A stretch of DNA of 63,385 bases, counting the filler, from Chrysochromulina tobinii (taxonomy: Eukaryota): assembly GCA_001275005.1 (NCBI GenBank). It is 5 parts of 5 records of this genome, joined end to end, with 100 filler letters (N's around TTAATTAATTAA, not from the genome) between each part and the next. Parts side by side here need not be neighbours in the genome. Positions count along the whole stretch, not along the records: positions 1 to 24,909 come from JWZX01001303.1; positions 25,010 to 37,431 come from JWZX01001304.1; positions 37,532 to 57,102 come from JWZX01001306.1; 2 more parts are not named here. The stretch is one strand, 5' to 3'. The notes beneath the pieces were generated by a model. It was not told the origin of the DNA, searched no databases, and saw only the letters and a program-made list of their open reading frames with translations. How positions within the stretch are numbered: position 1 is the first letter of the stretch; every line of letters starts with the position of its first letter. Both the position numbers and the translations under genes were made by a program. Below are positions 9,301 through 57,102 of this stretch, piece by piece.

Positions 9301-10087
9301 GGCGCGCAGGCTTTGGCGGTGCAGGCCTACTTGTTAGATCATCCGGAGATCGACGCCGTGTGGTTCGACTTCAGCTCAATGCCCCAAGGGCAGAAGAAGA
9401 CTGAGCGCGAGTCCGCCGAGTTCAAAGAGATGCTCCCCAACATCAACCTGCTCTACCTGACGTGCTCCGTCCTTATTCTCATGGATCGGAGCTACATGAA
9501 CCGATTCTGGACGCAGTTCGAGGCGTACCTGAGCATGCGGGCGATCACGAGCGAGGGTCTGACTAACGCTTTGGATCCAAAGGCGCGTGTGACCATCAAG
9601 ACGGCTGATGACCCCAGATGACCCCTGTTGGCCCCTGTTGACCCCTGATGACCACTGATAACCACTGATGACCACTGAGTGCCTTCCTCATCAGGCGCGT
9701 GTGACCATCATGACGCTCTACAACCTTCCCCCGATCATGGGCACGGCGCTCATGGACGAGTGGTCGAACAAGACGCCTGACGAGGCTCACGCGATCCTCG
9801 CGGGGCAGGATGTGATGGTCACCAACCAGAGCGACAAGGACATCCAGCTCGCTAAGCTCAAGGTGCTCAACAAGCGCCTCCGGTTGCCATTGATAGCCTC
9901 TGATGGCTCATGATTGACTCCAAAATGACTCTGATTCCTTTTGTATGCTCGCTAAGCTCGAGGCGCTCAAAGCGCCTCTGATTGGCCCTGGTGGTTTCTG
10001 AGTCACCTGATGACCACTGAGTACCTCCCTCATCAGGTGCTCAACGAGCGAGCCCAGTGGGCGTACGCGCGCTCTCTCGATGCCTGA
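6307..10087 (+). CDS. Multidomain fusion: DDX1-like Q motif/Walker A + SPRY, CCCH zinc finger, La motif, EF-hand pair, SH3-like segments, C-terminal HET-like domain (exons 6307-9582, 9695-9862, 10037-10087)
   Basis: FAELGL..PTPVQQEAIPLILGGGDVMAAAETGSGKT; SPRY (YYYEV..CRVGWAT..GDVIGC..LFPAICLK); CMFFAQGRCKWGAQCRYAH; LLKQIEYYFSDNLPNDEFM..GWVDL..FNRIK; DADGNGRLD and DTDCSGGLE; VSHRWETPTDPDP..VWFDFSSMPQ..NINLLY..YMNRFWTQFE. Two phase-0 introns restore one frame to a TGA at 10085. Confidence 0.8.
9583..9694 (+). other. GC-AG exon-echo intron
   Basis: AAG|GCGCGTGTGACCATCA...10-nt repeats...CCTCATCAG|GCGCGTGTGACCATCA. The first 16 nt are identical to the next exon start. Phase 0, frame restored. 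Confidence 0.75.
9863..10036 (+). other. GT-AG exon-echo intron
   Basis: AAG|GTGCTCAACAAGCG...CCCTCATCAG|GTGCTCAACGAGCG, with a second internal degenerate copy of the junction (CTCGCTAAGCTCGAGGCGCTCAAAGCG). Confidence 0.75.
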
Positions 10088-10640
10088 GCCATCGATGCCG
10101 TTGTGAAGAGAAGAAAGGGTGGGGGGTGGGTGAGGCGCCGAACATGGCGCTGAAACGAGCCCCCCAACGGGAAACGGCCGCGCTGGGGGCGGGGGACTGG
10201 GGGGGAGGGAAGGGAACCTACGTGGGTGGGTGCATGGGTGCAAGCAGCATGGGTAGGGGGCATCAAGGTGGTGCCCACCATCCTTCTCGAGGGCGACGAC
10301 AACGGCTCCTAGCAGATCGACAAGTAGGTCGCGCGCAACCGCGATCACGCGGCGTTCGGGTTCATCTTCCGCGAAAACGCGCGCGACATTCTGAACAGCA
10401 AAACGTTCCACACCAGTGCTTAGTGTGCGGCCTTCGTGCAGGCGTTGTGTGCCCGCCTCCACACGAAACCGCGCCAATCCCGGTTCCCGCCCCGGTATAT
10501 CCAACCTGTTGAAAGTGGTTGAAAGATCCGTCGTATGGGACTGTCTTGAAGTCGAACGGTTTGTTGATGATTGCGGCTCACACGCATCTCACGAAAAAAA
10601 TTACCACGTGCCGCGAGCTGCGAACAGTCGGTCGACGGCA

Positions 10641-12077
10641 TTATTGTTGAAAACGCGCGCATGGCTTCGCTTCGAGTCGCACCTCGTCCTCTCGCTCGGT
10701 CTCATACACAATGTGCCCTCGGAAGTCCGACTGTACGCGGTGTCGGCGCAGCTTGGTGGCCTTCTCAACCGCCCCAGGCACCCCGACTTCGGTAAACGTG
10801 GGTGCCCGGGCGGAGCACAGCTTGCAAGTCGCATTCATACGCCCCAAGTGGTTCACCTCGTAGCACCCTTGCGCCCACATGCGTGCCCCATCCTCGACGG
10901 CAGCAGGGCGACCTCCGTCGCCGCCGCCTGTGGCGGCAGGCGGCGGCGCCCACGCAGGCAGCGACAGCTTGGGTGCGTGGAGCCACGCAAACTTGGACTG
11001 CGCGAGATGGAGCAGCATCACCTCTTGCTCATTCACCTCGAGGGTAGAACCTCGGAGCTTGAGTCGCATCGCACCGCACGGACAGAACGAGCAGCCACTT
11101 GCATAGTCGGTGCACGTCTTCGCCTCGGCAAAGGGCATCTTGAGTCTCGAGAGCACCGCGCCACCCTCAACCTCGGCGAGCCTCGTGACCACGTCGCCCA
11201 TCGTCTCCCACCCCCGAGAGTAGTGGAACTCGCCCCACCACTCGTCGAAATGAGCGTAATCTCCCGACGAGATGACCCGTTTCCAATGTGGTGAGGTGCG
11301 GAAGAGGGAGGTGCCCCAGCCGACGCGGAAGGCTGTAAACGGACCCCACGCCTTCTTGCGCCATGGGTTGGGGTAGAGCGGGGTCACCACGTTCACCTGC
11401 TCGTCGTGATCGCACGGGCAGTAGTGCTTATGCGAGTACACGTTGACCATGTTGACGTTCCGTGGCTCGAGCTGGCCCGTCTGCTTGCCCTTGCTCAGTG
11501 GGATTTGGCAGCACGTCTGGGGAGTCAGGTTGCCGGCCGCCGCGGCGGCTGCCGCGCACTCCTCGCGCGCCTTGGCCGCGCCACGGCCACCGTCACCCTG
11601 GCGCGGAATGCAGCGGCAGCAAGCCGCATGCTTGCCACGCGAGGCCAGATTCATCCACTTGAGCAGGTTGCCGAAGACGACGTCGAGATCCGACCACGCC
11701 CACCACTCGTGACCGGCGGTGTGCTGCGGGTAGAGCTCCGCGGCGAGAGGCTTGATGTCGTTGCCCTTGTTGTAGTGCCCTGCGTACGTGTCGGCGTAAT
11801 GGACGCTGCTCGAATTCCCCGGCGTGATCAGATCGGAGAGCCGCTGCTGCATGGCCACGAAGCTCGTCTTTTCAAAGTGGACATTGGAAGGCAGCACCGC
11901 CGGCGCGTCCGCGTTTGTGATGACCACGAAGTCGACGAGCGCATTGACGTACATGGATTGCAGAGTGAGCGGCAGCCACGGAGGCAGCGGGCCAAAATAG
12001 ACAATGTAAACCACGAGCGGCTTGGCGGGCGTCATGTGCGCCTGCGCCAAACGTCGGGAGTCCGCGCAGCCCGGCAC
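10641..12077 (-). CDS. DUF6625-like putative glycosyltransferase
   Basis: IVYFGPLPPWLPLTLQSM..N..VDFVVITN, DIKPL, WWAWSDLDVVFGNL (DxD). The first ATG in frame is 12035; the true start is uncertain. Confidence 0.65.
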   Translation of the reverse strand: MPGCADSRRLAQAHMTPAKPLVVYIVYFGPLPPWLPLTLQSMYVNALVDFVVITNADAPAVLPSNVHFEKTSFVAMQQRLSDLITPGNSSSVHYADTYAGHYNKGNDIKPLAAELYPQHTAGHEWWAWSDLDVVFGNLLKWMNLASRGKHAACCRCIPRQGDGGRGAAKAREECAAAAAAAGNLTPQTCCQIPLSKGKQTGQLEPRNVNMVNVYSHKHYCPCDHDEQVNVVTPLYPNPWRKKAWGPFTAFRVGWGTSLFRTSPHWKRVISSGDYAHFDEWWGEFHYSRGWETMGDVVTRLAEVEGGAVLSRLKMPFAEAKTCTDYASGCSFCPCGAMRLKLRGSTLEVNEQEVMLLHLAQSKFAWLHAPKLSLPAWAPPPAATGGGDGGRPAAVEDGARMWAQGCYEVNHLGRMNATCKLCSARAPTFTEVGVPGAVEKATKLRRHRVQSDFRGHIVYETEREDEVRLEAKPCARFQQ

Positions 12078-12549
12078 AGCTCGCCAGCACCAGCCGTGCG
12101 ACGCGCTGCGCAGGCGCGGCCGTGCGACATGAGTTCAGCGCCGTTATGAGCACTTCGAACAGAAGATGGGGTGATTGCCTCGCCATAACTACTGTCCCCA
12201 CCGATTGTGTTACGACTGTGTTGCCGTAGACGGTCCCGTCGGTCACACCTCCGTCTATAGCGAAAGGCTACCCTCATGCTTCTGCTTGCAGGGGTCCGCG
12301 CGGAGTCCGCGGAGACAGTGTACCGCGATGTGACTTGTGTTGAACAGCAGCAGCCTAGACCTCACGCTTTTTTTGATCCCCTCCAAAAACTTCCGACCAC
12401 TGATACTGTCAGCAACACAGCAAGTCGAGCAAGTTGAGTCACGCACAGCGAGACTGACAAGTCCCTGGAGAGAGCCCTTGTTGTGTGCGGCGCGGCAGCA
12501 ATGGCGTTTGGCCGGCCTCCGGTGGGCGCATCGGCCGCCCGCGCCTCTC

Positions 12550-14505
12550 TCAATACGAGTGCCACTCCATGTCGGCGCCTTTGGGGGCGCTCGCGGCCCA
12601 GCGCTCCGCCATCCGTGGCACAAACTTGGTCACGTAGAGCTCGCGCGTGATCGCATTCGGCGCGATGGTCCCGTCGGGTAGGAAGCCGTTGAAGCAGTGC
12701 TCGTACCCCCGGCCATCGTGCGCACCAATGACGATCTCGCCGCCAAAGGGCGGGTCGAGTGTGGCGTTGGTCGCCCAGTCCTGCAGGTCCATGACCGCAT
12801 TCGTCAGGAAGAAGGTGTCCGAGGCGCCCACGAAGACATGTAGCTTGCCGCTCAGCTTTGCGCCCAGCCCGTGAGCCCACTCGCGCTTGAGCTTGTCCGT
12901 CATGTCGAAGTGTTCCTTCCAATACTGCGCGACCTGCGGGTCGATGGCGCCGTACTCACACGTGGTGTCGCGCGGATCCTTGCACCAGAGGCGCTTCGGG
13001 TAGCCATCCTCGCCGCGGGGGCCAAAGACTGCTTCCCAAATGTCCCACTGGCCACACGAGCGACTTCTCGGACCGAGCACGATCTCCCGACGGTTCATTT
13101 CCTCTACGGTGGCAGTCGTCTGGCCATAGGGCGAGCCGTACGTAGGGATCGACGTGCCCGGAATCACGGCCGTGCCCGAGTAGTGATCGCGCTGCCCCGG
13201 GCGCGCCGTCCGTTTAAACGGAGCGTCGTAGAAGTATGCGTTCTTCGCCTCGTAGATATTGACCGTGGTGTACGAGGTGAAACCGATCGGATCCGGGCAG
13301 GCGACGGCCGCGTAGTTGAAGTCGTCAGGGTAGAGGACCTGCACGGCAAAGCTCTCCCAGCCGCCTGTCGAGCCGCCCATCACGCCGCGCGCCCAGCCTG
13401 CCCCGAGCCCGCGGTACTGCCCCTCAATCGCCGGCAGCAGCTCCGTCATGATCGCAGAGCCGTACGGGCCGACGTTGACGCTGTCGACTGCGTAGCTGTC
13501 GTCGAAAAAGGGCACCTGTGCGCATGGGCAGCAGGGGGCGATGGGATGCGAGCGAGCGTCGGCAGGCAGGGAGGCATGGCAAGGGATGGCCACCCTTCCT
13601 CAGCAGAGAACGGTTGGTGGTGTGGCGCACACCGGGTGGTTGATAGTGACCATGAGCGCGCGTGCGCCCTTGAAGGGCCCCTCGGCGGACGTCCAGTTGC
13701 CATAGAGCCAATTAGCATACTGTTGGTCCACGAAGGCGTACCCGGTCAGGTTGGCCGAGGGCGGCGTCGGGTCGAACCGACCGCCAGGATTGAATGTGGC
13801 CGAGTAGTGGCCGTGTGCGATCGCGAGAGGGTACTTGGCGTTTGGATGCTCGTTGAAGCCGAACGGAAGGAGTACGCACGCCTCAAGCACGATGGGTTTG
13901 CCCCAAAACGCGCTGAGCAGCTTCGAGGTCACGCGCACCGTCTTGATCCACTCGGTGTCGGCGCCCTTGCCAGAGCAACCTGGAGAGGAAGGGTGCGGGT
14001 CGGCCAGCTCGGTCAGCGAGAGCGCGACCTCCGCGTCCACGTGGAGCGTCACCGTCTTGGGCTTTGAGTAGAGCGTGCCCGGCGGCAGGCCGTACGCGCC
14101 GTCGCCGCCCCCAGGCGACACGCACGTTGTCGGCAGCGTCACATTGACGCCGTCGCCACGCACAAACACCTCATAAAGGTTGAGGTCCGCTTGCATGCAG
14201 TACTCGCCATCTTCAAGGTTGAGGAGGGAGATGTACGGATAGCCGAGGGAATCGGCCGTAATCTTGACGCTCGCGCCCGGTGCCAGACCGCCGGCGGGCG
14301 TGTCCTCGCCAAAGACCTGTGCGGTGTCCTGATCGTCGCCGCAGCTCGTGATTGGTGGCGAGGCTCCCGGCCTGCACGCGCCCCGGAGGATGAAGACACG
14401 CACCCGGCCGAGGACGTTGCCATCGGACCGGTCGGCGGGCAGCGTGACAGTCACCGTCGATGACGCGGCGATCGCGATGGCGGTGGATATGAGGAAAGGC
14501 AGCAT
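12550..14505 (-). CDS. Secreted putative esterase (alpha/beta hydrolase, enterochelin-esterase-like); intron 13516-13632
   Basis: Signal peptide MLPFLISTAIAIAAS. Spliced INHP|VPFFDDSYAVDSVNVGPYG. Nucleophile motif GGSTGGW; VGASDTFFL; EHCF. Confidence 0.85.
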
Positions 14506-15243
14506 GGGGTACAGACTGTTGGTGCTGGCAGTGGGAGAGCCGAGAGAACTTTGTAACTTACTAAGCTACCTACGCATTGGCAGGACCCCCTGAATTGCGG
14601 TGGGGGAATTTGAAGGGGATGTCGGCGTGGGAGTAAGGCGGCATGCGGCATGGAACATGGAACGGCACCTGGTGACACGACGGGACCCGGGCATGGAAAC
14701 CTGCTTGTTCTCCTCGTTGCTTGTTCTTCCCGTTGCTTGTCGTGGGCTCGGTGCTCGTCGTCAGTCCTTACTGTCGGGGCTTGAGCCCCTCCGGTCTCAT
14801 GTTGTCTGTTTCATATCGTCGTTCACAGTTCTCGCCACGACCTGGAACCATCATTGGCGCTTTTCCATGGACGTGTCGTCCCGCGCACTCTCAAGGCGGC
14901 CGCCGTGTACACGCTGTTCGTTCTCTTCTCCGGACCGTGACGCTCCCCGGGCCTTTGGCAAAGCCCTCAGTCAGGGCACCACCTCTCGCGCTCCGGGGCT
15001 GTTTCCGCCTAATAGTAGGTACTTTCCGCCTCAGGTCGCGGATCATCCCCCCGATTCCGCGAGTTTTGAGACTCTGCCTATGTTAAGTAGGCGATGCGGA
15101 CTCCATAAAGTGCCACTTCACGCACACACACAATGACCGCAAGGTTGACATAGTTGCTCCCCCCGAGCTTGCGCCTCCCTCACGTAGCCAACATTTTTTC
15201 ACCGCATTGGCGCCATACTGGGCGCCTCCGCGGTTTTTCGCAA

Positions 15244-16392
15244 ATGACTGGCTCACTACCAGACGATACGGCGCTGCTCTTGCTGCCGCTGCTGCTGTTG
15301 CTGCTGCTCATCGGGTTTGCCTGCGTCTCCACCTTTGCACGCAACCAACGCGAGACGATCACGGCCGCAACGTTCCGCAGCCGCCACGCCGCAGCTCACG
15401 GTTATGATGTTGCGTTGCTCTCCCACGGGATCACAGCCTTCCAGACAGTTGGCATGCAGAGTGGCGCTTCGCACCAAACGCCCATAATGATCGTGCACGG
15501 TGCGACCATAGCGTCGCTCGCGTACTTGCCCCTCGCACGCGCGTTTGCGACACACGGCTACCGCGTGCTTGTTTATGATGGTTTTGGAAGGGGCTTCTCC
15601 GATCGCCTGGGCCAGTGCAGCCTGGGGTCTCGGCCAGGGCCTCGGCCGGTGAGCATGGATGTGCTCGTGGGTCAGCTGCTCGAGCTGCTCGATCACCTGG
15701 CCATCGAACGCACGGTGCTCTACGGCACCAGCCTCGGCGCCGCCATCATCGCTTGCTTCGCGGCTCGCCACCCAGAGCGCGTGCTGGCGTGCGGCTTCGA
15801 GGCGCCGCTCATCCGGCCGCCGCCCTCCCACAAGCTCACGCTTCTTGCCGTGGCGGCACGCGTGCTGCCGCCGCTTGCGCGCTGGCTCGGGCGCGTTGCC
15901 ATGGTCCCCGCGATGCGTGCGCGTGGCGACTCGTTTGGCGACGACGTGGAGGCGCGTGTACTGTCGGATCGGTTTCGCGATCAGTTCGAGGTGCTCGGGC
16001 ACGAGGCCGACCTCCTCTCACTGCTCACTGGCAACGCGGTGCGCGGCGACCGCACGCAGGACCATGTGGCCATCGGTGCGCGTGCCCTGCCTGTCTCGTT
16101 TGCATACGCCCTCAGTGACGCCGAGATGCCCCGTGCGCTCGTCGAGCGCACCATCGCGCTGCACCCGCAGCCGGTAGTGAGCGCGTATGAGGGCGGGCAC
16201 TTTTTCAGCAATGGGCGGCAGGTTGAGCTTGCAAGGGTCTTTGACGCGTTCCTTCGTGGGGCGCTCCATGCACGTGACTTTATGAAATCACGGTCCGTGA
16301 TTTCGCACTCAGCGCCCCGGCCAGCAGATGCGCCAGTTCCGGTGGCGGCAGTGCGGAGGCGGCTGAGCCGTAGCCCACTCAGATACAAGTGA
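15244..16392 (+). CDS. Alpha/beta hydrolase with N-terminal membrane anchor
   Basis: IVHG, YDGFGRGFSDR, GTSLG nucleophile elbow, GGHFF, and a poly-Leu anchor. Confidence 0.85.
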   Translation: MTGSLPDDTALLLLPLLLLLLLIGFACVSTFARNQRETITAATFRSRHAAAHGYDVALLSHGITAFQTVGMQSGASHQTPIMIVHGATIASLAYLPLARAFATHGYRVLVYDGFGRGFSDRLGQCSLGSRPGPRPVSMDVLVGQLLELLDHLAIERTVLYGTSLGAAIIACFAARHPERVLACGFEAPLIRPPPSHKLTLLAVAARVLPPLARWLGRVAMVPAMRARGDSFGDDVEARVLSDRFRDQFEVLGHEADLLSLLTGNAVRGDRTQDHVAIGARALPVSFAYALSDAEMPRALVERTIALHPQPVVSAYEGGHFFSNGRQVELARVFDAFLRGALHARDFMKSRSVISHSAPRPADAPVPVAAVRRRLSRSPLRYK

Positions 16393-17015
16393 GATCGGAT
16401 GGGGTAGACGCAAGATGGTGGGCCTGCGAGCAATGGCAGCCAGAGCGGTGCGCGGCAGGTACGAGGAGCGCTCAGAGAGAGGCCGAGCGGCGCGGCCAGG
16501 AACGGCGCGCGTATTCAGCCCACCGCACGCCTCACCAGCTAGCAGCTTTCAATGCGTCGGATAGTATCATGTGGGCAAATTAAAGTGAAAGACAGTGTGG
16601 TCTCCCTGAGTATGCTGTATGCTTAAAGTTGTGGCACTTGGAAGAGTTGGCGAACATGGTACATGGGTCATGGGCCCGAGATGCGTGGCGTGAAATGCGC
16701 GTATCCGGAATCCGCTGTCCCGTGTCCGCGGACCGCGCCGTATGCGTATCGTATGTATCGGCAGACTGTCCGCCCGTGCGGTGGGAACCTTCGGCCACGC
16801 CCCACGCGGTCGCGTCCCGACCCTGCTGCAGCAAAGTCGTACATGCCCTTGCGTACATTGCCAAACATGCCATGCATGCCCTTGTCGTACATGCTGTGCG
16901 TACTACTTTGGCGAAATGAGCCGCGCTCTGACCCCGTGCTCGGCGACTCCGGAGCCTATCCCGTTTTCGAAGGGAGGTTGGGATGTGTGTGGAAGCGAAT
17001 CTGCATTCGTCGTCC

Positions 17016-17735: not shown

Positions 17736-18063
17736 GGCAAGAGCTGGTACCGGTAAGTTCTGAGTGGGTCGTCTCGACTCACGGCGCTTTCCCGTCGCGA
17801 GGACACGCGCTCGTGAGTGCGCCACACCGCCGTCGAGATTCTTCCGTTTCGCGGGCGCGGAATTTGAGGACTTTGTTTGGTTTGGATTCTCTCAAGGGTT
17901 AGGGTTCGCCTCGAGATACGGGTGCCGGCGCGCAACACTGTGTCCCTCCAGAAGGCGAAAGGGCACACATCAGCGCCCTCATGCGCCCCTCGATCGTGGT
18001 ATGTCGTGTGTGCTGCGCATGCAAAACGTGGAGTGTAGGGCAGCTCGCTTGCCAATGCATGCC

Positions 18064-18623: not shown

Positions 18624-18656
<33 letters not shown>

Positions 18657-24909: not shown

Positions 24910-25009
24910 NNNNNNNNNNNNNNNNNNNNNNNNNNNNNNNNNNNNNNNNNNNNTTAATTAATTAANNNNNNNNNNNNNNNNNNNNNNNNNNNNNNNNNNN
25001 NNNNNNNNN
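24910..25009. other. Artificial contig linker
   Basis: 44 N + TTAATTAATTAA (stops in six frames) + 44 N. Confidence 0.97.
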
Positions 25010-25525
25010 GTTCGTCTTATTGATAAAGACGCAGAATTCGTCGAAGTCGAGGGTGCCATTATTATCTTCGTCAACGGTCGAGAAGATCTCATCAAACATC
25101 GGCTTTGGTATCGTGTAGCCGCACCGAAGGACTGCGTCGGCGAGCTCATCCTTCGTCAGTTTGCCATCACCGTCGTCATACTGGAAGAAGATGGCCCGAA
25201 GCTCGGCCTCCGGGACACCCTTGTCGGGACCCCACTCGAAGATCCCACTCAACTGGCCAGCCAATGCAGCAGATGCCCCCTTGTCCAGCCCGAATGTGGG
25301 CGCGCTTGGTGGTCTATCGGCCATCGCCTTCTCCGCCGCCGCCTTCTCAGCCGCCGCCTGCTCGGCCGCCGCCTTCAAGAGTATGTCGGTGGAAGGCGGC
25401 TGTAAAGGCGAGGCGAACATACGAACTTGACCCAAAGTCGAGTGGCCCAATGCGGAGGGGTGCCCACATACGCGCGTTGGCGACGCGGGTACCCAAGCTA
25501 GCGCAGCAAGGACGTCTGTCCGCAT
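25010..25525 (-). CDS. 5' part of a tandem paralog of the EF-hand/theta-CA gene (truncated by contig end)
   Basis: 25010-25212 is nearly identical to 27354-27556 (EF-hand pair), and the targeting peptide is similar to 27600-27725. It has an extra AAAEKAAAEK-containing insert. Confidence 0.75.
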
Positions 25526-26168: not shown

Positions 26169-27725
26169 TCAGCTGCCGAACCCCTTCAATCGAGCTTCTT
26201 CAAGCTTCTTCAAGAGCACCTTGGCCTTTCGAGCATCCGGGTTGCTCCGATCGAGCACCCGTTTCGCGACGTCTTGGGAGCCCAGAATCGGCACGAGGTC
26301 GGGTTTCGCGCCAAACGTCTCCGCAAACAGGTCAGAAGGTGTGAGGTACTGGAGTTGTTTGGTGCGCAGCTCGAAGCTTAGAGGCTGGAAAAAGTCGCCT
26401 CCAGTCCTGCGGTTGATCATGATGCCGCCGACGATGGCGACCTCGGTGGCCCAATCCCACACGTCCGACGTCTCCTTGATGCAGTCGTCGAGGAGGTCCC
26501 GCACGATCGTGTACATCTGATACGTGACATACGTGATCGGATCCCCAGCCTTCTCGATGCCCGGAATGAGCGGTTTGAGGCGGTCGATGATGATGCCAAG
26601 CTCAGGGTCGAACTCATAGTCAGCCTCCTTTGTGTCCAGCATGGTCATCAGCGAGGCCGGCAGCAACTGCGGATTCTTCACGGCCTTCTCCGCTTCGTCC
26701 TTGATCGCCTTGTACGAGCCCACGGCCGCACCGCACGCCTTAGAGACCTGGGACTGGCCCTCTCTCTCCAGAGCGCCTATCACGCCGTACGCATCGATGC
26801 CAACGTGCGGTGCGAAGAAGATGAGCAGTTTGCCGTTGTCCGGCACGTGGTGAAGAAACGCACGGAAGCCGGACTTGCCTGCGAACGGCAGGCCGCCCAA
26901 GCCGCCCAGAGAGAATCCCTCTTGCCATCGCGACACCATCAGATTTACGAGCTCCTCTGCGTTCTGGTTCACCTCGTCCGAGCACACGCTGTGGGCGAAG
27001 AGCGTGTTGGCGGGGGTGAAGCCGCGCCGGTAGAGGGTGCTCGCCACCTTGGCGTCGAGATCACTCGAGAGGAGCGCAGTGGGGAAGTATTTGTTCTGCG
27101 CCGCCTCCGCCTTGGGGTCCACATAGATGCCACGGAAGGTCTTCTGCGCCCAAGCGTATTCGTCGTCGTATCTGCTGACGCCGAAGGCTGCAATAGTTGA
27201 GAGAGCCACGAAGAGAACGGTACGGCGCCGCGCTAGGAGATCCCGATTTGCAGCAAACTGCGCAAACTCAAACTTGTCGACGGACCCGCTGTTGTCCGCG
27301 TCGTAAGTCCTGAAGAGATCCATCGCGTCTATGACGCTCTGCTGTGGCTTCAAGTTCGTCTTATTGATAAAGACGCAGAATTCGTCGAAGTCGAGGGTGC
27401 CATTATTATCTTCGTCAACGGTCGAGAAGATCTCATCAAACGTCGGCTTTGGTATCGTGTAGCCGCACCGAAGAACTGCGTCGGCGAGCTCATCCTTCGT
27501 CAGTTTGCCATCACCGTCGTCATACTGGAAGAAGATGGCCCGAAGCTCGGCCTCCGAGGACTTGGCCTCACCCAAAAGAAGGCGGTCGAAGAGGGGAGGC
27601 GGTGAAGGCGAGGCGGTCATACGGACTTGACCCAAAGTCGAGTGGCTCAACGCGGAGGGGTGGCCACATACGCGCGTTGGCGACGCGGGTACCCAAGCGA
27701 GTGCAGCAAAGACGGCTATCAGCAT
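26169..27725 (-). CDS. EF-hand-containing LCIB/LCIC-family (theta-type) carbonic anhydrase, plastid-targeted
   Basis: Signal plus transit-like N-terminus; three EF-hand loops (DDGDGKLTKDE, DEDNNGTLDFDE, DADNSGSVDKFE); RRR plus hydrophobic helix; LCIB motifs HSVCSDEVN, LGGLGGLPFAGKSGF..HHVP, APHVGI, ACGA, GGIMIN. Confidence 0.88.
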   Translation of the reverse strand: MLIAVFAALAWVPASPTRVCGHPSALSHSTLGQVRMTASPSPPPLFDRLLLGEAKSSEAELRAIFFQYDDGDGKLTKDELADAVLRCGYTIPKPTFDEIFSTVDEDNNGTLDFDEFCVFINKTNLKPQQSVIDAMDLFRTYDADNSGSVDKFEFAQFAANRDLLARRRTVLFVALSTIAAFGVSRYDDEYAWAQKTFRGIYVDPKAEAAQNKYFPTALLSSDLDAKVASTLYRRGFTPANTLFAHSVCSDEVNQNAEELVNLMVSRWQEGFSLGGLGGLPFAGKSGFRAFLHHVPDNGKLLIFFAPHVGIDAYGVIGALEREGQSQVSKACGAAVGSYKAIKDEAEKAVKNPQLLPASLMTMLDTKEADYEFDPELGIIIDRLKPLIPGIEKAGDPITYVTYQMYTIVRDLLDDCIKETSDVWDWATEVAIVGGIMINRRTGGDFFQPLSFELRTKQLQYLTPSDLFAETFGAKPDLVPILGSQDVAKRVLDRSNPDARKAKVLLKKLEEARLKGFGS

Positions 27726-28841
27726 CGACCCGACGGAAGTCGACGTGAGAGAGCTCACGTGACCTGAGCGCGCGTGCTCTGATTTCTTCGTGTTTCTATA
27801 TTTGCTATGTCGGACCCGGAATTACCCGAGATTCCCATATGTGACGAATCTCATGGCTGCCTAATGAAGAGAAGACGAAACCCTGGGAAATGTTTATTTC
27901 TTAGATACCGGGTACGTAAGTGTCAAGTCAAGTCAAGTCAAGCCAAATCAAGCCTTGACTTGTACCGGGTAAGTGCTAACCCATCGTGAGGGAGCGACCG
28001 ACCTCGCACGAGTTTAAGCTTTAACCCAAGACCGGCTGTGTAGATGGCGTCCGTCTGCTCGGCGGTGAGAGCGCCGCTGTGAAACATCTCGGAGTACATG
28101 AAGGCTCGAATTTTGCATTGCCCCATGTATGTACGTACCCTCACCGTCCGCGCGGTGCGGGTGGCACCGGTGGCCCGGCGAGGCGCTCGTGTTGAGAGTT
28201 GACTAACGTGATAACAGTCTTGTCGAGAGAAACGTGCAGGTCGCGATAAAGCAGTGGCGCTCATCATGGCGCAAGTCAAGCAGCTGAGCTCCGTGTGACG
28301 AGATTTCGTACCGGGCAGTCCCGCGAGGCCACCTGCCCCTGACCCCCTGTGCCCCACCTTGACCCAGACGCTTCCCAGCTCCGGCCCTCCGCATAAGCTC
28401 CGCAAATGCACGATACGCCTCCGCCGTGCTCGGGTACCCATGATTAAATGGACGCACTCAGGGCAATTAAATTCGGCAATAGGGTCCATCAGGGACAATC
28501 AGGGAAAATCAGGGAGGATCGGGTAACTGATGAGGGATACAATCAGAGGCATTCCGGTGGGCAATCGGGCACGGGAGCGGATCGGGTGTACCTCATGAGG
28601 GACGCAATCACTTCAGCATGGCAATCAGTCACAGTACGCAGTCGCAGACCGCGGCAGACGTGTCATCACGGGTACGAGGTTTCAGGTTACAGTACGTTAG
28701 TAGTACGGACGAACGCGACGCGTGTGAAGTTCATGTTCCCCCCCCACTCAGTAAAAAATTCCACGCGGTCGTCCACACGCTGCGTCGTTTACGTCCTATA
28801 CTCACATTACTGACTGATGCCGGTATAGGGTATAGTTTCTG

Positions 28842-39092: not shown

Positions 39093-39232
39093 CCCCGAGG
39101 CGGGCTCCAAGCAGCGTCGTGGGCGAATCAAGACAAGTCAAGTCAAGTTGTCAGCGATAAGATTATGTCTTGGGAGTCGGTGTTTCGTTATTAACTCCCA
39201 GAGCGTCCCTTCTCCACCTACTTTACCGGCGG

Positions 39233-42674: not shown

Positions 42675-44126
42675 TCACCTGCTTTTCAAGCAAGCTTCAA
42701 TGAGCAGATCAAGCACATCATCAGGAAACTTCATGCTGTATTTGTTCAGCCACAGCAGCAGCAAGACGAATCGCTGTGTGGTATGATTGAACATCAAATG
42801 ATCTTTGCGAGACCAATAGACCATATTCCAGACTTTGATCGTCTGGTCGATCGATCCCGACACGATCTTGGTCCCGTCCGGGGAGAACGCCACCGACATG
42901 ATCCATTTGCTGTGTGCGTTCATCTTCTCGCTCAACAGCTCCAGTTTGCCTGCCAGACAAGCCAACAAGCATCAGTTTTGGCCAAGGAGGGGCGATTTGA
43001 GGGCTGCAGCGCACCCGACTCCCAGACTTTGATCGTCCCGTCGTCCGACCCCGACACAATCTTGGTCCCGTCCGGGGAAAACGCCACTGAGTTGATGCAG
43101 TCGCTGTGGGCGTTCGTCTTCTCGATCAACTGCTCCAGCTTACCTGCCAGACAATCCAGCAGGCGTCAGTTTTGGACAGGAAAGCGCCATTTAAGAGCTC
43201 TGGCGCACCAGACTCCCAGACTTTGATCGTCCCATCAGCCGACCCCGACACAATCTTGGCCCCGTCCGGGGAAAACGCGACCGAGATGATGTCCCCGCTG
43301 TGGGCGTTGGTCTTCTCGCTCAACAGCCCCAGTTTCCCTGCCAGACAAGTCAGCAGGCGTTAGTTTCGGTCAAGGAGGGGTGATTTTGAGGGCTCTGGCG
43401 CACCAGACTCCCAGACTTTGATCGTCCGGTCTTCCGATCCCGAGACAATCTTGGTCCCGTCCGGGGAAAACGCCACCGACCTTATCCATCGGCTGTGGGC
43501 GTCGGTCTTCTCGCTCAACAGCTCCAGTTTTGCTGCCAGACAAGCCAGCAGGCGTCAGTTTTGGCAACGGAGGAGCCATTTGCGTGGCGCACCCGAACCC
43601 CAGACTTTGATCGTCTCGTCGTCCGATCCCGACACAATCTTGGTCCCGTCCGGGGAAAACGCCACCGAGTTGATGTCCCCGCTGTGGGCGTCCATCTTCT
43701 CGATCAACTGCTCCAGCTTGCCTGCCAGACAATCCAACAGGCGTCAGTTTTTGCCAAGGAGGAGTGATTTTGAAGGCTCTGAGGCACACCCGAATCCCAG
43801 ACTTTAATCTTGACCTCGCCTTCCTCCTCATCAAAAGTCTCATCAAATTCTTCCCACGAAGTGACAGCGATGCCGTTGATAGACATAAGTGTGCACCCAT
43901 TCCCATAGGCATCATTAATCGCAGTCTGGTCTTCCTTGGAGGCAACAAAAGTACGTTCTCCGACTGGCTGATCTCTCAATTCCCAGACTTTCATCGTCCC
44001 ATGATCCGATCCCGACACAATCTTCGTGCCATCGGGCGAAAAGACGACCGAGATGATGGCATCGCTGATTGTGTCGGTGTGGGCGTTCGTCTTCTCCGCT
44101 ATACAGTTGATGAGCATCGCGATCAT
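42675..44126 (-). CDS. WD40-repeat protein, copy A (exons 44126-43790, 43721-43593, 43532-43404, 43337-43209, 43143-43015, 42949-~42675)
   Basis: Four internal 129-nt phase-1 exons each encode one [43 protein letters not shown] repeat, separated by homologous 60-68-nt GT-AG introns. Start codon and last exon are uncertain. Confidence 0.85.
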
Positions 44127-44943
44127 CCTGCGGACAAGAGAGAAGAACAGAGGCTCAGGCAGCGTGTGTATTCGGCAGCATGGAGATATGGGACCACAAG
44201 CGACTGCAAGATCGAAGGGCGCTTGAAGGGTCTCGATGCAGACATGCAACAGCCAACAGCGTGCCGCGAGGATGAGGGGAATCGCGTGAGGAGTGTGGCT
44301 CCGAAGCTCATCGCGAACCGGAGAGTCGCATGAGCGGACTCGATCGATTCCGTGTGCGGCGGTGGGCGAAGGCGGAGCGCATGCTGCGAACGATAACGTC
44401 ACCGAGGAGGGACAAGGACGCTGCCTGCCAGATCCGCTGCCGTTCAACACAACGCGCATGCCGACCCCAAAGCACGAGGGCCTCTATCGCTATGGACGGA
44501 GGCATGGCCAACACAGCCTAACACCGTGCCTGAGGGAAAAAAGCGTCTGCCGACAAAAGGGGGATATTCTGCCTCTTCGTCAAGTAAACGCGAACAAATC
44601 TCCACAAACCTTAAAAGGCCCACGTTGCAAAACCCCGAAAGACGTGGGACGCATCATGGCGCTTGTGCGCGTTGCTGCCGGGCTGCCTGGCGTCGTCAGT
44701 CGCGCTCGGGTCGTCCCGTTCGAGCTTTGAGGCGACGTCCGTGGTCGATGCCGACCACGGCGAGAGCGAATCGCGAAGCCGGCGACGCCGAGGCCCGAGT
44801 ACGGCCTGTGAGGTCGCGTTTTGGTCGCATTTCGGTACTTGGACATGCAGAGTGACCTTGAATGGCGTGATTCTCTGTGTTGTATGAGTCCATATAGTCC
44901 CTAGACTCGATCTATGGCCCTCCAGCTATGTGCTGTCTCGCGA
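43020..44943. repeat. 1.9-kb direct repeat, copy 1 (copy 2 at 50460-52383)
   Basis: Sequence is identical at offset 7440 except for one substitution I could see (43121 C vs 50561 A). Confidence 0.92.
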
Positions 44944-49921: not shown

Positions 49922-51566
49922 TCACCTTCTTTGCAAGCAAGCTTCGATGAGTAGATCAAGCACATCATCCGGAAACTTCATAGTGTACTTGTTCAGCCAC
50001 AGCAGCAGCAAGACGAGCCGCTGGGTGGTATCCTTGAACATCAAATGATCTTTGCGAGACCACTTGACCATATCCCAGACTTTGATCGTCCCATCAGCCG
50101 ATCCGGACACAATCTTGGTCCCTTCCGGGGAAAACGCCACTGACGAGATCCGTTCGCTGTGGGCGTTCTTCTTCTCGCTAATGAGCTCCAGTTTGGCTGC
50201 GAGAGCCAACAGGCGTCAGTTTTGGCCAAGGAGGGGCGATCTTGAGGGCTCCGGCGCACCTGAATCCCAGACTTTGATAGACTTGTCGTCCGATACCGAC
50301 ACAATCTTGGTCCCGTCCGGGGAAAACGCCACCGACAAGACATAGCTGCTATGCGCGTCCGTCTTCTCGCTCACCAGCTCCAGGCCTACCAGACAAGCCA
50401 GCAGGCGTCAGTTTTGGCCAAGGAGGTGCCATTCATTTGATGGCAAAAGCGCACCTGAATCCCAGACTTTGATCGTCCCGTCGTCCGACCCCGACACAAT
50501 CTTGGTCCCGTCCGGGGAAAACGCCACTGAGTTGATGCAGTCGCTGTGGGCGTTCGTCTTATCGATCAACTGCTCCAGCTTACCTGCCAGACAATCCAGC
50601 AGGCGTCAGTTTTGGACAGGAAAGCGCCATTTAAGAGCTCTGGCGCACCAGACTCCCAGACTTTGATCGTCCCATCAGCCGACCCCGACACAATCTTGGC
50701 CCCGTCCGGGGAAAACGCGACCGAGATGATGTCCCCGCTGTGGGCGTTGGTCTTCTCGCTCAACAGCCCCAGTTTCCCTGCCAGACAAGTCAGCAGGCGT
50801 TAGTTTCGGTCAAGGAGGGGTGATTTTGAGGGCTCTGGCGCACCAGACTCCCAGACTTTGATCGTCCGGTCTTCCGATCCCGAGACAATCTTGGTCCCGT
50901 CCGGGGAAAACGCCACCGACCTTATCCATCGGCTGTGGGCGTCGGTCTTCTCGCTCAACAGCTCCAGTTTTGCTGCCAGACAAGCCAGCAGGCGTCAGTT
51001 TTGGCAACGGAGGAGCCATTTGCGTGGCGCACCCGAACCCCAGACTTTGATCGTCTCGTCGTCCGATCCCGACACAATCTTGGTCCCGTCCGGGGAAAAC
51101 GCCACCGAGTTGATGTCCCCGCTGTGGGCGTCCATCTTCTCGATCAACTGCTCCAGCTTGCCTGCCAGACAATCCAACAGGCGTCAGTTTTTGCCAAGGA
51201 GGAGTGATTTTGAAGGCTCTGAGGCACACCCGAATCCCAGACTTTAATCTTGACCTCGCCTTCCTCCTCATCAAAAGTCTCATCAAATTCTTCCCACGAA
51301 GTGACAGCGATGCCGTTGATAGACATAAGTGTGCACCCATTCCCATAGGCATCATTAATCGCAGTCTGGTCTTCCTTGGAGGCAACAAAAGTACGTTCTC
51401 CGACTGGCTGATCTCTCAATTCCCAGACTTTCATCGTCCCATGATCCGATCCCGACACAATCTTCGTGCCATCGGGCGAAAAGACGACCGAGATGATGGC
51501 ATCGCTGATTGTGTCGGTGTGGGCGTTCGTCTTCTCCGCTATACAGTTGATGAGCATCGCGATCAT
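49922..51566 (-). CDS. WD40-repeat protein, copy B (one extra repeat exon 50385-50260; divergent last exon from 50196)
   Basis: Same exon-intron cassette structure as copy A, with an additional 126-nt exon ([29 protein letters not shown]) and a different final repeat (HSERISS..). Confidence 0.85.
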
Positions 51567-52383
51567 CCTGCGGACAAGAGAGAAGAACAGAGGCTCAGGC
51601 AGCGTGTGTATTCGGCAGCATGGAGATATGGGACCACAAGCGACTGCAAGATCGAAGGGCGCTTGAAGGGTCTCGATGCAGACATGCAACAGCCAACAGC
51701 GTGCCGCGAGGATGAGGGGAATCGCGTGAGGAGTGTGGCTCCGAAGCTCATCGCGAACCGGAGAGTCGCATGAGCGGACTCGATCGATTCCGTGTGCGGC
51801 GGTGGGCGAAGGCGGAGCGCATGCTGCGAACGATAACGTCACCGAGGAGGGACAAGGACGCTGCCTGCCAGATCCGCTGCCGTTCAACACAACGCGCATG
51901 CCGACCCCAAAGCACGAGGGCCTCTATCGCTATGGACGGAGGCATGGCCAACACAGCCTAACACCGTGCCTGAGGGAAAAAAGCGTCTGCCGACAAAAGG
52001 GGGATATTCTGCCTCTTCGTCAAGTAAACGCGAACAAATCTCCACAAACCTTAAAAGGCCCACGTTGCAAAACCCCGAAAGACGTGGGACGCATCATGGC
52101 GCTTGTGCGCGTTGCTGCCGGGCTGCCTGGCGTCGTCAGTCGCGCTCGGGTCGTCCCGTTCGAGCTTTGAGGCGACGTCCGTGGTCGATGCCGACCACGG
52201 CGAGAGCGAATCGCGAAGCCGGCGACGCCGAGGCCCGAGTACGGCCTGTGAGGTCGCGTTTTGGTCGCATTTCGGTACTTGGACATGCAGAGTGACCTTG
52301 AATGGCGTGATTCTCTGTGTTGTATGAGTCCATATAGTCCCTAGACTCGATCTATGGCCCTCCAGCTATGTGCTGTCTCGCGA
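50460..52383. repeat. 1.9-kb direct repeat, copy 2
   Basis: See copy 1. Confidence 0.92.
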
Positions 52384-53794
52384 TCTTTGGAGATGTGCAT
52401 CGAAATCCGACTTCGCCTCGAATATCGACCCGTCGTGAACCATTTGACCCTACAGCTCAAGAATTCGAGCTCCAAAACACATTCTCTCGCCTGTTCTCGG
52501 TAGTGTACCATAGAGTGGTGTGCGATCCTAAGATGAAGAGTGGTTGACGTTATGTATGACGCACATTGCAGTACGGAACCTACATTATGCACACAAGTTG
52601 CCCTGTACGACACACGCGAGTATGCTCTATGCACAGTGCTCCCCTACGCTAGAAGAGTGATGCTCTCCGATCATCAGCCCGGTCGGGATATCTCACGAGG
52701 CGACTCCGGCATGCCGTGAGCCGCCCATGCGACGCTATCTGCGCTGTCCTGGAGCCATCTGCTGTCCTGCGCGTCGTGCGCTGCGGGCGGGGCTGCAGCC
52801 ACATCCGGTTCTGTGACGAGCTGATCGCCGACGCGTTGAGCCCACTGCCCCGAGAATGCGGCGCCTCAGCCCACCAGCTGGCTGCGGCGGATGCTCCGTG
52901 CGCGGCAAGCCGCGCAGATGCCTTCGGGTGCGACACCGTTGCCCCTGTGCTGTTCCCAGATGCCGCAGCACCGGGTCACAATGTGAGTATGTGACATCTG
53001 AGTGGCGACAGTGACTTAATGATGGCTTGATTATCTGTGTTGTACATAACTCATAAGTCCATATAGTCCCCGCCCGCCCCGTCCCCCGCCCGTCCCCCTT
53101 GGCAGTCAGTGGTTCATGTTGGGCCGTAATTTCGAAGATTACACTGATGAGTGCGAGCGGACTAGTACTCGGCCGCCTTAATACGCGGCCGCCTACTCGG
53201 AATCTATCCAAAACGGCGGCTGTGAACTGCGCGCTCTACGGCGCGCACGCGCCCTGACTTTCCGGCTCCGAAGGCCGGCCACCCTCGCAGTATTGCTCGC
53301 TGTGGATACCCCCGCGGCACCTGCCTCTTTTTGGCGCTTCGGGGTGGAATGGCAGGCCACACGAGTGCCGATTAGCGATTTGCGCGCGCGCCTAGGCCGC
53401 GCACCTGTCGAAGTGTCGATATGGCGCTTGGCGGGCAAGGGGCATCGCGGGGTCCTGCCTTCGGACCGGCGCTCGAGCCCGACGCGGCGGAGGCCCGACA
53501 TCGCCGGACGCCTGGGGGCGGGCTGCCGCGCTCGTCCTCGAGAGCCGAGCCCGAGGTGCACGGCGAGGACCCAACACCGCGCAGGTGGGAATCGCGCCGG
53601 CGACGCTGTTCGGTTGAGGCCCACACGCCACAGATGACGAATCTCACACAGAAACCGACCCCTACGCTTCGGACTTCTATCGGACGCGGAGATCGTCTCT
53701 CATTGAAAAGCGGACATGGGGTCACGGTCACTGGTGCGCGAGAAGAGACCCCCCGGGGAGGGGAATGCAGATTGGGGTCGGAGCCGTCGTCTCT

Positions 53795-56700
53795 TCACCG
53801 ATGGATGTCGAGCGCTGGGTACATCTTGCGAGCGCCCTTGCTCTTGGGCACGTCCTCCCGCAAGGGCGGCGCGGTCGGCAGGAGCATCTCGCCCCGTATG
53901 AGCAGCTTGGGCGCCGAGACCACCGGTGCGGCGCTGTGCGGGCACGCATGCGGCATGATCAGGAGCTTGCCGCGCCGCGGCGCCGAGCGCGCAAGCACGT
54001 GGCGTTCCCCGGGGGCCACGCCACCTGATGAGGGATGCACTCAAGCAGTCATCAGAGGCCATCGGAGGTAATCAGAGGTCATCAGAGGGCGCTCTTCGGG
54101 GGCCACGCCACCCGCGGCTGCGAGCTTGGCGTCGCCCGGCTTGGCCTCGAGGAGGAGCGTCTCGCCACCGTACTCGCAGTCGGTCAGGTAGAGCAGGAAG
54201 CTGTGCGTCGTGCGCACCCCCTGGGTATTCACACCCCCTTCAACTTGCCGCGGCTGGTCCGGATGGGTATTCACACCACCCTCGGGTATTAACACCCTCG
54301 GCAGGTCCACATGGGCAGGTAGCGAGCCGCCCGGTGACGGGTAGTGGAGGAATCGCATCAGGGGCAGCGTGCCGTAGCGGCGCGGCGCGGCAGAGCACGC
54401 AGGCTGGCCCTCGTAGAGCGCGCACATCGTCGTGGCATCGTCGTCGATGGCGGGCTTGCGGACTGGCACGCTGGGAGCGCTGGACGGTGCCGGTGCCGGT
54501 GCCGGTGCCGGTGCCGGTGCCGGGGATGGTGATGATGCCGGTGCCGGTGATGGTGATGATGCCGGTGCCGGTGATGGTGATGATGCCGATTTCGGTGATG
54601 CCGATGGTGACATTCCTGCCTGCATGCTCGCCACCCGTACTTGGTACTCCGCGCGGGTGCGACAATCGCTCTCGATGAAGCTCGGCAGGTGCCCGCTACG
54701 GCGCTCGCACTCCCGCGCCTCCTCCTCCGCCGCCCATCGGAGCACTTCGGGGCGACCACCGAGAGTGGCGGCGCCCACGACGACGCTCCAATCCCACGGG
54801 CACCCGTTCCGATGGGCCCACCTGAGCAGGGGCAGGTGCCCCGCCCATGCCGCCGCCTGCCCCACCTCCTCGTTCCAAGGCGCCCCTTCGAGACGAAGCT
54901 GCTGCAGCCGGCCGAGCTCTCCATACCTAATGAGGGAGGCAATCAGATGCCATCAGAGGCCATCAGAGGCAATCAGGGCCGTGAGCCAGCCGAGCTCTCC
55001 ATACCTAATGAGGGAGGCAATCAGATTCAATCAGAGGCAATCAGAGGCAATCAGGGCTGTGAGCCGGCCGAGCTCTCCATACTTGGCAGCGAGTCCGCAC
55101 GGTCGGTAGTCTGGCGGGGGTGGCCGACGGGGCGGGGGGTGCCGATGGCGCGGGCGGCTGCGGGTGCTTCAACTCGAGCGCCGTGTCGAGCGCCGTCCGT
55201 GGCATAAATCGAGCGGCGGCCTTGCCAGCCGCAGCGGCGGCAGGACCCGCGACATCATCACTACTGTCGCCATCATCACCACTGCCGCCATCATCACCAC
55301 TGCCGCCACCATCACCACTGCCGCCGCATCCATGGGCTTGCAGCACGTCATGCTGTACGCCGTCGGCGGCTCGCGCGCCGTCGTCGCTCGCTGCTGCCCG
55401 CTCGGGCATCAGGCCAACGGCCACGAGCGCCGTGTCGAGCGCCGCACAGAGCCAGCCGTCCACGTCCGCATAGTAGCTGCGGTCGATGGGCGACGGCTTG
55501 TCCTTTGGGGCGACGGGCAGCGCGCGCCAGAGCTGCACGATCGCATCGAGGCACGCGGGATGCAGCGCCGTCTCGAGCACGAGCGTTCCCGCGCCGGGGT
55601 GCGGCGCGAGCGAAGCAGGCAGGAGGGTCGTCACCGTGGGCACGTGGCCAGTCGGGACCTCGAGCATCTCGCCATCGCTCGCGCCTGGGCGCCGAGTCAC
55701 CGCCTTATGCGCCAGCAACGCCTTCCGCAGCAGCGGCTGCAACTGGGCAAACGACCGATGCTCCGTCGCCTCGCATGCAGCGTGCAGGCTCGCGGCCAGT
55801 TCCGCGTGCCCCGCCGCCGCCGCGGCCGCTGCCGGTAGCCAGCCGCCGTTGGCCGTGAGGGTGGCGCGCGCTCCAAGGGCCAGCAGCTCGCGCGCGGCCT
55901 CGGCATGCCCATGCTCGGCGGCTAGAAAGAGGGCGGTGCGCCCGTATTCGTCTTGCCCATCCAGCCGAGCGGACCGCTTGCCGATGCATTCAAGGATGAG
56001 CCGCAAGTCCCCACGCGCCGCCGCGGCGCGCAGCCGAGCATCGTCCATCGAGCGCGTCGCATCGCCCGCCTGCAGCGACGCGACGAACTCGGCCCATGCC
56101 GCCGCCGCCGCGCCGTCCGGGCGCGTGATCCGCGCGCACACGCGCGCCACGAGCTCGTCGTGCCGTCGTCGAGCGCAGTGTTGGTCGCTGAGGGCGTCCG
56201 AGCTGCTCACCTGTGGGAAAGAGGGCGGGCGCGCCGTGGTGGGCACTTGCATGCAAGGCAGAGGGCAGAGGGCGTCGAGCTGCTCACCAGAGGCGCATTC
56301 TTGCTCGTCTCTCGGGCCTTGGCCAAAAAGTACGCCTTGCCCGCGCGCACGAGGCCCGGGTTGGGGGCCTGCTTGGCGGCAGGCTTGCTGGCGGCGTCGG
56401 CGCCCTCGAGGAGGGAGCAGCCCACCTGATGAGGGAGGCGATCAGCATGCCATCGGAGATGCAATTAAAGGCCATCCGGAGGCTCGATGCTCGAGGAGCA
56501 TGCAGCCCGCCTCGGCATGCGGCCACTCCTGATGAGGGAGGAAATCAGCATGCAGCCCACCTCGGCATGCGGCCAGTACCAAGCCGCGCGCGTCGCCTCG
56601 GGCGGCGCCGGCATCAGGGGCGGACGCGGCGCTGGCGACGCCGCCGTAGTGGGCGCCCACGACGGCGCTGATGACGACGGCGCTGGTGATGACGCAGTCG

Positions 56701-56836
56701 TGGGCGCCCACGACGGCGCCCGTGGGAGTGGGAGTGGGAGTGGGAGTGGGAGTGGGAGGTAGTCCTCGGCGACGTCCCTCTCGAAGCTGAAGGAGACGAG
56801 CCGTTGGGATTCGGAAGGCGCGAGCGGCGTGGCCAC
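53795..56836 (-). CDS. Multi-exon ankyrin-repeat + 2OG-Fe(II) oxygenase (prolyl 4-hydroxylase-like) gene, 5' end cut by contig end
   Basis: GRTALFLAAEHGH ankyrin; AAAWAGHLPLLRWAHRNGCPWDW repeat; LMRFLHY..HVD..FLLYLTDCEYGGET..PHACPH..KLLIRGE. Introns 54025-54111, 54927-55082, 56211-56287, 56426-56560 and one ending at 56837. The frame between about 55083 and 55200 needs one more intron or a frameshift. Confidence 0.7.
54025..54111 (-). other. Exon-echo intron
   Basis: G|GTGGCGTGGCCCCCG...CTGATGACCTCTGATTACCTC...CCCTCATCAG|GTGGCGTGGCCCCCG. Phase 1, frame restored. Confidence 0.8.
54927..55082 (-). other. Exon-echo intron made of two tandem 78-nt units
   Basis: Each unit is GTATGGAGAGCTCGGCYGGCT (copy of next exon) + (TGATTGCCTC)-like repeats + CCTCATTAG. 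Confidence 0.75.
56211..56287 (-). other. Exon-echo intron with a different 3' module
   Basis: GTGAGCAGCTCGACGCCCTC...TGCATGCAAGTGCCCACCACGGCGCGCCCGCCCTCTTTCCCACAG|GTGAGCAGCTCGGACGCCCTC. Phase 0, in frame. Confidence 0.78.
56426..56560 (-). other. Compound exon-echo intron with two CCCTCATCAG modules
   Basis: GAG|GTGGGCTGC...CCTCATCAG, then an internal copy of the junction (TGGCCGCATGCCGAGGCGGGCTGCATGCTCCTCGAG), then CCCTCATCAG|GTGGGCTGCTCCCTCCTCGAG. Phase 0. Confidence 0.72.
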
Positions 56837-57102
56837 CTGATGAGGGAGGCAATCATGGGTCATCAGAGCCGTTGGGATTCGGAAGGCGCGAGCGGCGTGG
56901 CCACCTGATGAGGGAGGCAATCATGGGTCATCAGAGCCGTTGGGATTCGGAAGGCGCCAGCGGCGTGGCCACCTGATGAGGGAGGCAATCATGGGTCATC
57001 AGAGCCGTTGGGATTCGGAAGGCGCGAGCGGCGTAGCCACCTGATGAGGGAGGCAATCATGGGTCATCAGAGCCGTTGGGATTCGGAAGGCGCGAGCGGC
57101 GT
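56798..57102 (-). repeat. 68-bp tandem repeat (about 4.5 units) = 39-nt exon copy + TGATGACCCATGATTGCCTCCCTCATCAG
   Basis: CTG acceptor complements at 56837, 56905, 56973 and 57041 (period 68). The array runs into the contig end. Confidence 0.92.

Follow-up and report, generated by a model that had tools for sequence, protein, structure and literature searches.

New spliceosomal introns that arise outside transposon bursts have a source that is a long-standing open question, and a stretch of 63,385 nucleotides from the freshwater haptophyte alga Chrysochromulina tobinii (hereafter the window; five contigs joined by N spacers) raises it in a particular form: how does an intron come to begin with a copy of the exon that follows it? 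The initial annotation of the window had singled out eight such introns, in the genes here called A, B and C, whose 5' ends echo the next exon and most of which end in a common module, and it had read them as products of one candidate intron-generating family. All eight segments lie where it placed them (Table 1), and six of the eight end in a CCTCATYAG-type module, as it had said. The intron architecture is real, spliced, abundant and apparently undescribed; it is introner-like in part, fails the tests of elements with terminal inverted repeats (TIRs), and is best read as the result of template-switch copying of intron tails.

Introns that repeat the following exon

Four of the named introns are skipped in RNA contigs, namely 127-220, 9583-9694 (a 112-nt skip in X12 and X14), 9863-10036 (174 nt, in the same two) and 54025-54111 (87 nt, in X14), while an X6 DNA contig spans the last without differences and, for the first three, DNA run X10 has no joint among the matches listed. 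These four are removed from RNA, present in DNA and bounded by GT-AG or GC-AG ends, as spliceosomal introns are; the other four (54927-55082, 56211-56287, 56426-56560 and that ending at 56837) are predicted, an RNA skip not being among the joints listed, so that the junction check proposed by the initial annotation bears out half of its list. Because of the echo, the RNA joint at 9583 can be placed anywhere over 18-23 nt, and the sole register ending in AG is GC-AG. The claim that each intron starts with a copy of the next exon holds for the seven that were checked, though for 9 nt only at 56426-56560; the 5' end of the intron ending at 56837 is hidden by a gap, and the 39-nt exon copies seen there are internal units of a tandem array. 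The interior of 9863-10036 (~9947-9976) carries a second copy of the end of exon 1 together with the echo. Echoes also mislead gene callers: the public gene model P0089 enters intron 9583-9694 and terminates inside it. The spliced model of gene C is frameshifted; contigs from X6 and from X13 have a single gap apiece within 55102-55429, and the frameshift is thus probably a 1-nt assembly error.

The frequency of the pattern was measured in metagenome sequence, where a scan with the module returned at least 137 loci holding 294 module ends in 222 distinct contexts; a scan of viral contigs with the module gave 0 matches. In 183 of the 222 contexts the bases after the module end are GT or GC, and in 205 the first of them is G. 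We define the echo as an upstream copy of the start of the next exon, counted at a score of at least 10, and since tandem module copies inflate the offset control, only terminal module ends with at least 400 nt of upstream and 100 nt of downstream flank were used, which left 95 sites. An echo precedes 52 of these 95 terminal CCTCCCTCATYAG ends; among 285 permuted pairs there was none, and the two offset controls gave 4/95 and 0/95, so that exon-intron similarity at these sites exceeds chance. Echo length ranges from 11 to 55 nt (median 21) with 23 different lengths among the 52, so there is no fixed size, and the proposal that donors derive from long duplications of variable length stands; half of the echoes (26/52) are still identical to the exon. 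Of the 57 sites with a score of at least 8, 32 were judged by eye to be direct, the outermost copy following exon-like sequence and beginning with GT or GC. Splicing leaves an open frame in 29 of these 32 and retention brings stops in 25 of the 29, in agreement with the earlier suggestion that splicing is coding-neutral. At many of the 38 sites lacking a scored echo, short or diverged echoes are visible by eye (uncounted), some drifted towards a canonical donor. Foreign array or module sequence lies between the copies in all cases, and no intron made only of duplicated exon sequence was seen.

The family appears to be very large: summed DNA depth over the window's module bins reaches 70,000-98,000 against ~45 for single-copy DNA, which is no copy number and yet points to many members, and the bin overlapping 56211-56287 has a summed depth of 9355. 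Run X20 contains the module but not gene C. The introns cluster by gene; an AFG3-type gene at locus L013 (positions 900-2786) has at least eight introns in 1.9 kb, all from the same modules, and several long genes of the window have none.

Two modules and the marks of copying

The module used for the scan, module A, carries a branch-like A at -17 in 88 of 94 ends. Its 5' end is not fixed, and CTGATGA, which the initial annotation took for a fixed module start, is the 10-mer repeat unit itself: of 52 modules, 5 have it next to the echo and 26 lack it altogether, and the hint of a terminal inverted repeat in CTGATGA/TCATCAG falls with the same 5/52. The start of the repeat unit, reverse-complemented, gives the final 7 nt of module A, so that the two can pair; RNA folding was no better than that of shuffles in 5/5 sequences. 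In the module contexts read there was neither poly(A) nor a shared terminal direct repeat, and an Rfam scan of three loci gave only sub-threshold hairpin matches.

Nor is there one module only, as had been supposed. An unselected k-mer search brought out a second family, B (GCATGC...CACCACGGCGC, variable pyrimidines, CCCACAG), unrelated to A, together with A/B hybrids. Of 30 B ends, 17 have the echo, compared with 1 in 150 permutations, and at one L131 junction a B-type echo came after an A-type echo. Roughly half of the introns sampled with either shared module at their end echo the first 11-55 bases of the next exon, and because module B behaves like module A, the echo is a property of a process and not of one element. 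Furthermore, the modules are almost confined to genes and to their strand: same-strand coding-like sequence follows 78 of 91 A ends (held-out coding 48/63, intergenic 4/81), and neighbouring array pairs lie on opposite strands in 5 of 175 cases.

The junctions themselves carry microhomology of at least 3 nt in 12 of the 24 that were scorable, against 12.6% of control breakpoints. This, with the lack of a fixed 5' end, agrees with the initial preference for synthesis or repair over cut-and-paste. That account had left out two further classes. Of 163 arrays that lack a module end, 47 lie between long direct repeats, against 0 of 796 controls. Most of these repeats span a donor, and several are mirror echoes, in which the acceptor is a copy of the end of the previous exon (for example at L012, L013, L043, L047, L051 and L136). 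Sequence has also been copied between introns of one gene: the intron at L013:910-976 begins with the first bases of an exon lying 1.2 kb downstream, and it has 35 consecutive nt in common with the intron preceding that exon. Elsewhere, an intron of L001 opens with an exon start located in the overlapping locus L112, and inside an intron at L112:250-490 lies an inverted piece captured from another gene, which comprises the end of an exon and a multi-unit echo intron. A search for copies of spliced junctions in echo-less introns gave 12 candidates, all explicable as layered duplications, and no signature that only mRNA could leave.

Gain, renewal and competing explanations

On a modest balance of probability we attribute these introns to microhomology-guided template switching that copies intron tails, both seeding new introns and rebuilding old ones. 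A polymerase copying a gene would use a few matching bases to jump onto the tail of another, existing intron, copy through the acceptor of that tail and return upstream, whereby the intervening stretch would be duplicated. With its branch-like A at -17, pyrimidine tract and AG, the tail so copied would give the acceptor, and the duplicated 11-55 nt would give the donor if they start with GT or GC, leaving the mRNA unchanged; at an existing junction the same event would rebuild an old intron, and repeated rounds with unequal exchange could generate the tandem arrays. Along an RNA or cDNA route, a reverse transcriptase would switch among spliced, unspliced and excised-intron RNA, and recombination would follow. 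We infer these steps, which lead from a footprint to an enzyme. The exact register, the ends precisely at 3' splice sites, the same-strand restriction and the existence of intron-less paralogs make us lean, by a narrow preference, to an RNA or cDNA intermediate rather than DNA-only repair; the microhomology, the small templated insertions and the tandem arrays fit DNA end-joining equally well.

Gain and renewal both appear to occur. Homologues were searched with single exons as queries. The 9583 site of gene B is read through by three open reading frames (ORFs), P0093, P0143 and P0100, the last representing five further cluster members; since they go on into the next intron, they are genomic and empty at the site. 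A further 35 more distant copies of the domain (38-54% identity to the anchor; some on 8-45 kb contigs) read through as well, and there are distant homologues in which both gene B introns are missing. Intron 9583-9694 is thus present or absent among close paralogs, and its echo is present in 11 of 11 intron-bearing paralogs, no echo-less version having been seen. For gene A, most homologues of exon 2, which may derive from DNA or from RNA, read through the site, and P0292 begins in intron-like sequence about one codon from it. Empty sites sought among metagenome loci with 32 hand-picked direct-echo junctions gave none. The initial proposal of intron gain finds some support in real empty sites in paralogs and has to share the ground with renewal, since part of the module-filled introns stand at positions common to other organisms.

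Several observations weigh against the explanation by template switching, or at least against its share of new positions. The tree puts P0093 and P0100 separately inside the intron-bearing clade and forces two changes, and such nested intron-less paralogs read as loss or recombination rather than fresh gain; moreover, the distant homologues were picked by the length of their ORFs, and transcripts may be among them. In the AFG3-type gene at L013, three positions with module-filled introns are common to other organisms, so that the same modules have refilled old positions, and one of its introns carries a different, longer echo in P0178, a close relative. Among 34 of 120 AFG3-type homologues, P0181, P0183 and P0190 break where the L013 intron at 2372 lies and P0201 breaks at two sites flanking it, and P0191, P0195 and P0199 (on 27-621 kb contigs) read through. 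The microhomology could be scored at just 24 of 52 junctions, leaving 28. In favour of template switching, the similarity of arrays is higher within a locus than between loci (0.196 vs 0.153; permutation p=0.009), but the same locus is also the same strain, and an earlier, smaller test of cis similarity fell short of significance (p=0.07). Also in its favour, 11 of 51 multi-module clusters have a module end after which upstream sequence resumes, in several cases from 5-22 nt inside the upstream exon, which argues that the duplications are not tied to existing junctions; the short return distances into exon 2 could also reflect selection against new mini-exons. Finally, no enzyme or autonomous element turned up, and no genome-wide search for one was made.

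A rather unlikely alternative is that all sites are old introns, of which one end has been replaced by exon sequence without any new position being made, either by a copy switching between the unspliced and spliced forms of the same transcript or by tandem duplication across a splice site with mRNA-mediated loss resolving in the first copy. Its appeal is that one step accounts for the exact register, for forward and mirror echoes and for the same-strand genic restriction; the shared AFG3 positions, the repeated events at one L131 junction, the intron-less paralogs nested in the tree and the plain internal repeats of the exon start held by 33 of the 51 multi-module clusters all suit it. By itself, however, it does not explain one acceptor module over hundreds of loci, and it sits poorly with the 11 of 11 carriers of 9583-9694 that have the echo, with the distant homologues free of both gene B introns and with return points off the junctions.

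The fixed 3' end, the variable 5' end and duplication, and the GT or GC after 183 of 222 module ends would also suit a discrete non-autonomous element, either SINE-like (a short interspersed element moved by target-primed reverse transcription) or Replitron-like (HUH nuclease), with a fixed end at the acceptor, a fuzzy other end and a long, variable target-site duplication. SINE-like traits are present in the variable length of the duplication, the one fixed end and the microhomology at the truncated end; Replitron-1 gives variable-length duplications at a dinucleotide target, and the accessible part of the source reports one Replitron locus in C. tobinii (PMC10288648). Such an element is nevertheless distinctly unlikely in view of two unrelated modules with hybrids between them, mirror echoes without a module end, the near absence of copies in intergenic or antisense position, pieces captured from other introns and the absence of a shared terminal direct repeat from the contexts read.

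A cut-and-paste DNA transposon, that is, an introner resembling a miniature inverted-repeat transposable element (MITE) with CTGATGA/TCATCAG as its TIRs, is very improbable. TIR elements make up most classified introners, and the last 7 nt of module A can indeed pair with the start of the repeat unit; but CTGATGA adjoins few echoes and is missing from half of the modules, the duplication is not of fixed length, folding does not exceed that of shuffles and the copies are strand-restricted. A TIR transposon or MITE was rejected on the fixed ends, the fixed duplication length and the copies in either orientation or outside genes that it would have. An assembly artefact or chance similarity in a GC-rich genome, to which the window gaps inside a tandem array and the probable indel error in gene C might lend colour, is hardly credible and was rejected on near-zero controls, on the recurrence of the same sites in independent assemblies (L079/L053, L016/L124), on the unchanged X6 contig across 54025-54111 and on RNA that skips four introns.

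Starting again from template switching as the preferred process, we put forward tentatively, at something short of even chances, a stronger reading: that introns of Chrysochromulina spread without a transposon of their own, the tail being template-switched, probably via RNA, into new exonic sites and the donor coming from the long duplication. Each new intron would then be a new template, and intron gain would be self-seeding, genome-scale and still active; it would also be invisible to introner screens because the 5' ends are locus-specific. The footprints are young, as judged from the echoes still identical to the exon, abundant, and variable among paralogs and strains, and as the alga is cultured and its genome public, gain versus renewal and RNA versus DNA template are directly testable.

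Known systems and other features of the window

The pattern is undescribed in the literature searched, from which subscription journals and some supplements were out of reach; the comparisons that follow refer to the accessible parts of each source. Introners that co-opt a donor have fixed duplications of 3-9 nt and often inverted repeats (PMC9860276; bioRxiv 10.1101/2020.10.14.339549; PMC11282704). The introns of C. tobinii are like them in that the acceptor is carried, the donor comes from duplicated exon sequence, the mRNA is unchanged and G is strong at the exon start, and unlike them in the variable duplication of 11-55 nt, the unfixed 5' end, the microhomologous junctions, the two modules and the mirror echoes. 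An introner family of Chrysochromulina sp. has a 4-nt duplication and the opposite polarity (PMC9860276). The 2022 introner screen of Gozashti et al. demanded similarity up to both intron ends (PMC9860276); here many introns of unrelated genes (222 contexts in at least 137 loci, plus the window) share sequence up to the 3' splice boundary only, the 5' ends being locus-specific exon copies. The largest introner survey, of 2025, lists 0 families for C. tobinii in its accessible supplement (PMC12130899), a blind spot of such surveys. The same source gives for Emiliania huxleyi a family, fam24, of 5 members and unknown class, with '10bp terminal direct repeats' and 'co-opt 5' carry 3'' (PMC12130899); it too is from a haptophyte, and the comparison is by annotation and not by sequence.

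The introns gained in Daphnia pulex by repair of staggered double-strand breaks share direct repeats, repeated events at one site and layered internal repeats with ours; in the accessible text no shared acceptor module is described and the parallel gains are unrelated in sequence, whereas here the filler copies the branch point and acceptor of another intron (PMC4202315). Tandem genomic duplication of exon sequence containing AGGT likewise recruits splice sites from duplicated exon sequence, but plain duplication brings no foreign branch point (PMC3443670). Intron transposition has been proposed, and so has reverse-transcription template switching, as a possible route to introns homologous to other introns in the latter case (PMC3443670); for template switching a matching footprint is now seen at scores of loci. 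Replitron-1 of Chlamydomonas reinhardtii resembles the modules in that one of its ends is fixed, at a dinucleotide target, the other is fuzzy and the target-site duplication is variable, and differs in its size of 0.9-3.6 kb, its terminal direct repeats and its HUH transposase, none of which was seen here; the accessible text does not describe intron creation by it (PMC10288648). The genome paper of C. tobinii, in its accessible part, mentions introns once (PMC4580454).

One gene of the window has named relatives in Prymnesium (72%) and Emiliania (66%). Introns of Emiliania are reported to be rich in GC donors and 10-11 nt repeats. The accessible part of PMC2784329 contains no mention of either.

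Table 1. Named introns, module arrays and a comparison intron in the window (positions along the whole stretch).
Feature	Position	Strand	Description
Gene A intron	127..220	+	GT-AG; ~23-nt diverged echo of next exon, then decayed module; skipped in RNA contigs of X12 and X14
Gene B intron 1	9583..9694	+	GC-AG; 21-nt echo (9583-9603, 20/21 match), 10-mer array, A-type acceptor
Gene B intron 2	9863..10036	+	GT-AG; 14-nt echo (13/14 match), array, internal repeat, array, A-type acceptor
Ordinary intron, internal negative example	13516..13632	-	without echo or module; 117-nt skip in X11 and X14
Decayed module cluster	28430..28640	-	short flanking repeats; between two ORFs; sole window copy without evident host intron
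Gene C intron	54025..54111	-	GT-AG; 15-nt exact echo (54097-54111; ~24 with mismatches), array, A-type acceptor
Gene C predicted intron	54927..55082	-	two 78-nt units (echo + array + acceptor); echo 21 exact
Gene C predicted intron	56211..56287	-	~23-nt echo with one gap; B-type module, GCATGC...CACCACGGCGC...CCCACAG
Gene C predicted intron	56426..56560	-	9-nt echo, short module, 18-nt copy of upstream exon end, array, A-type acceptor
Tandem array	56798..57102	-	4.5 x 68 nt (39-nt exon copy + 29-nt module); last acceptor 56837; donor beyond assembly gap

Gene B (6307-10078) is chimeric, joining the start of a DEAD-box helicase, SPRY, La and EF-hand domains and a C-terminal domain that in paralogs is attached to many different N-termini. 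On the minus strand, near-identical EF-hand coding segments occur at 25010-25240 and, ~2.3 kb away, at 27340-27560. Two similar WD40 gene arrays (42828-43809 and 50072-51249) have a period of 194-195 nt, apparently with one repeat and one short intron per unit, and the unit introns of the first are without echo and module. Beside these arrays, a high-copy repeat unrelated to the intron modules occupies 52000-53130, with similar sequence at ~44550-44930; its summed X6 depth of up to 39,576 and an opposite-strand joint make it a candidate transposon. A second high-copy repeat, intergenic, lies at 14540-15000 (summed X10 depth ~2,200 in bin 14008-14674), and the last contig carries a separate family of 10-mer arrays, of GAATGCATAC type, at 61650-62312.

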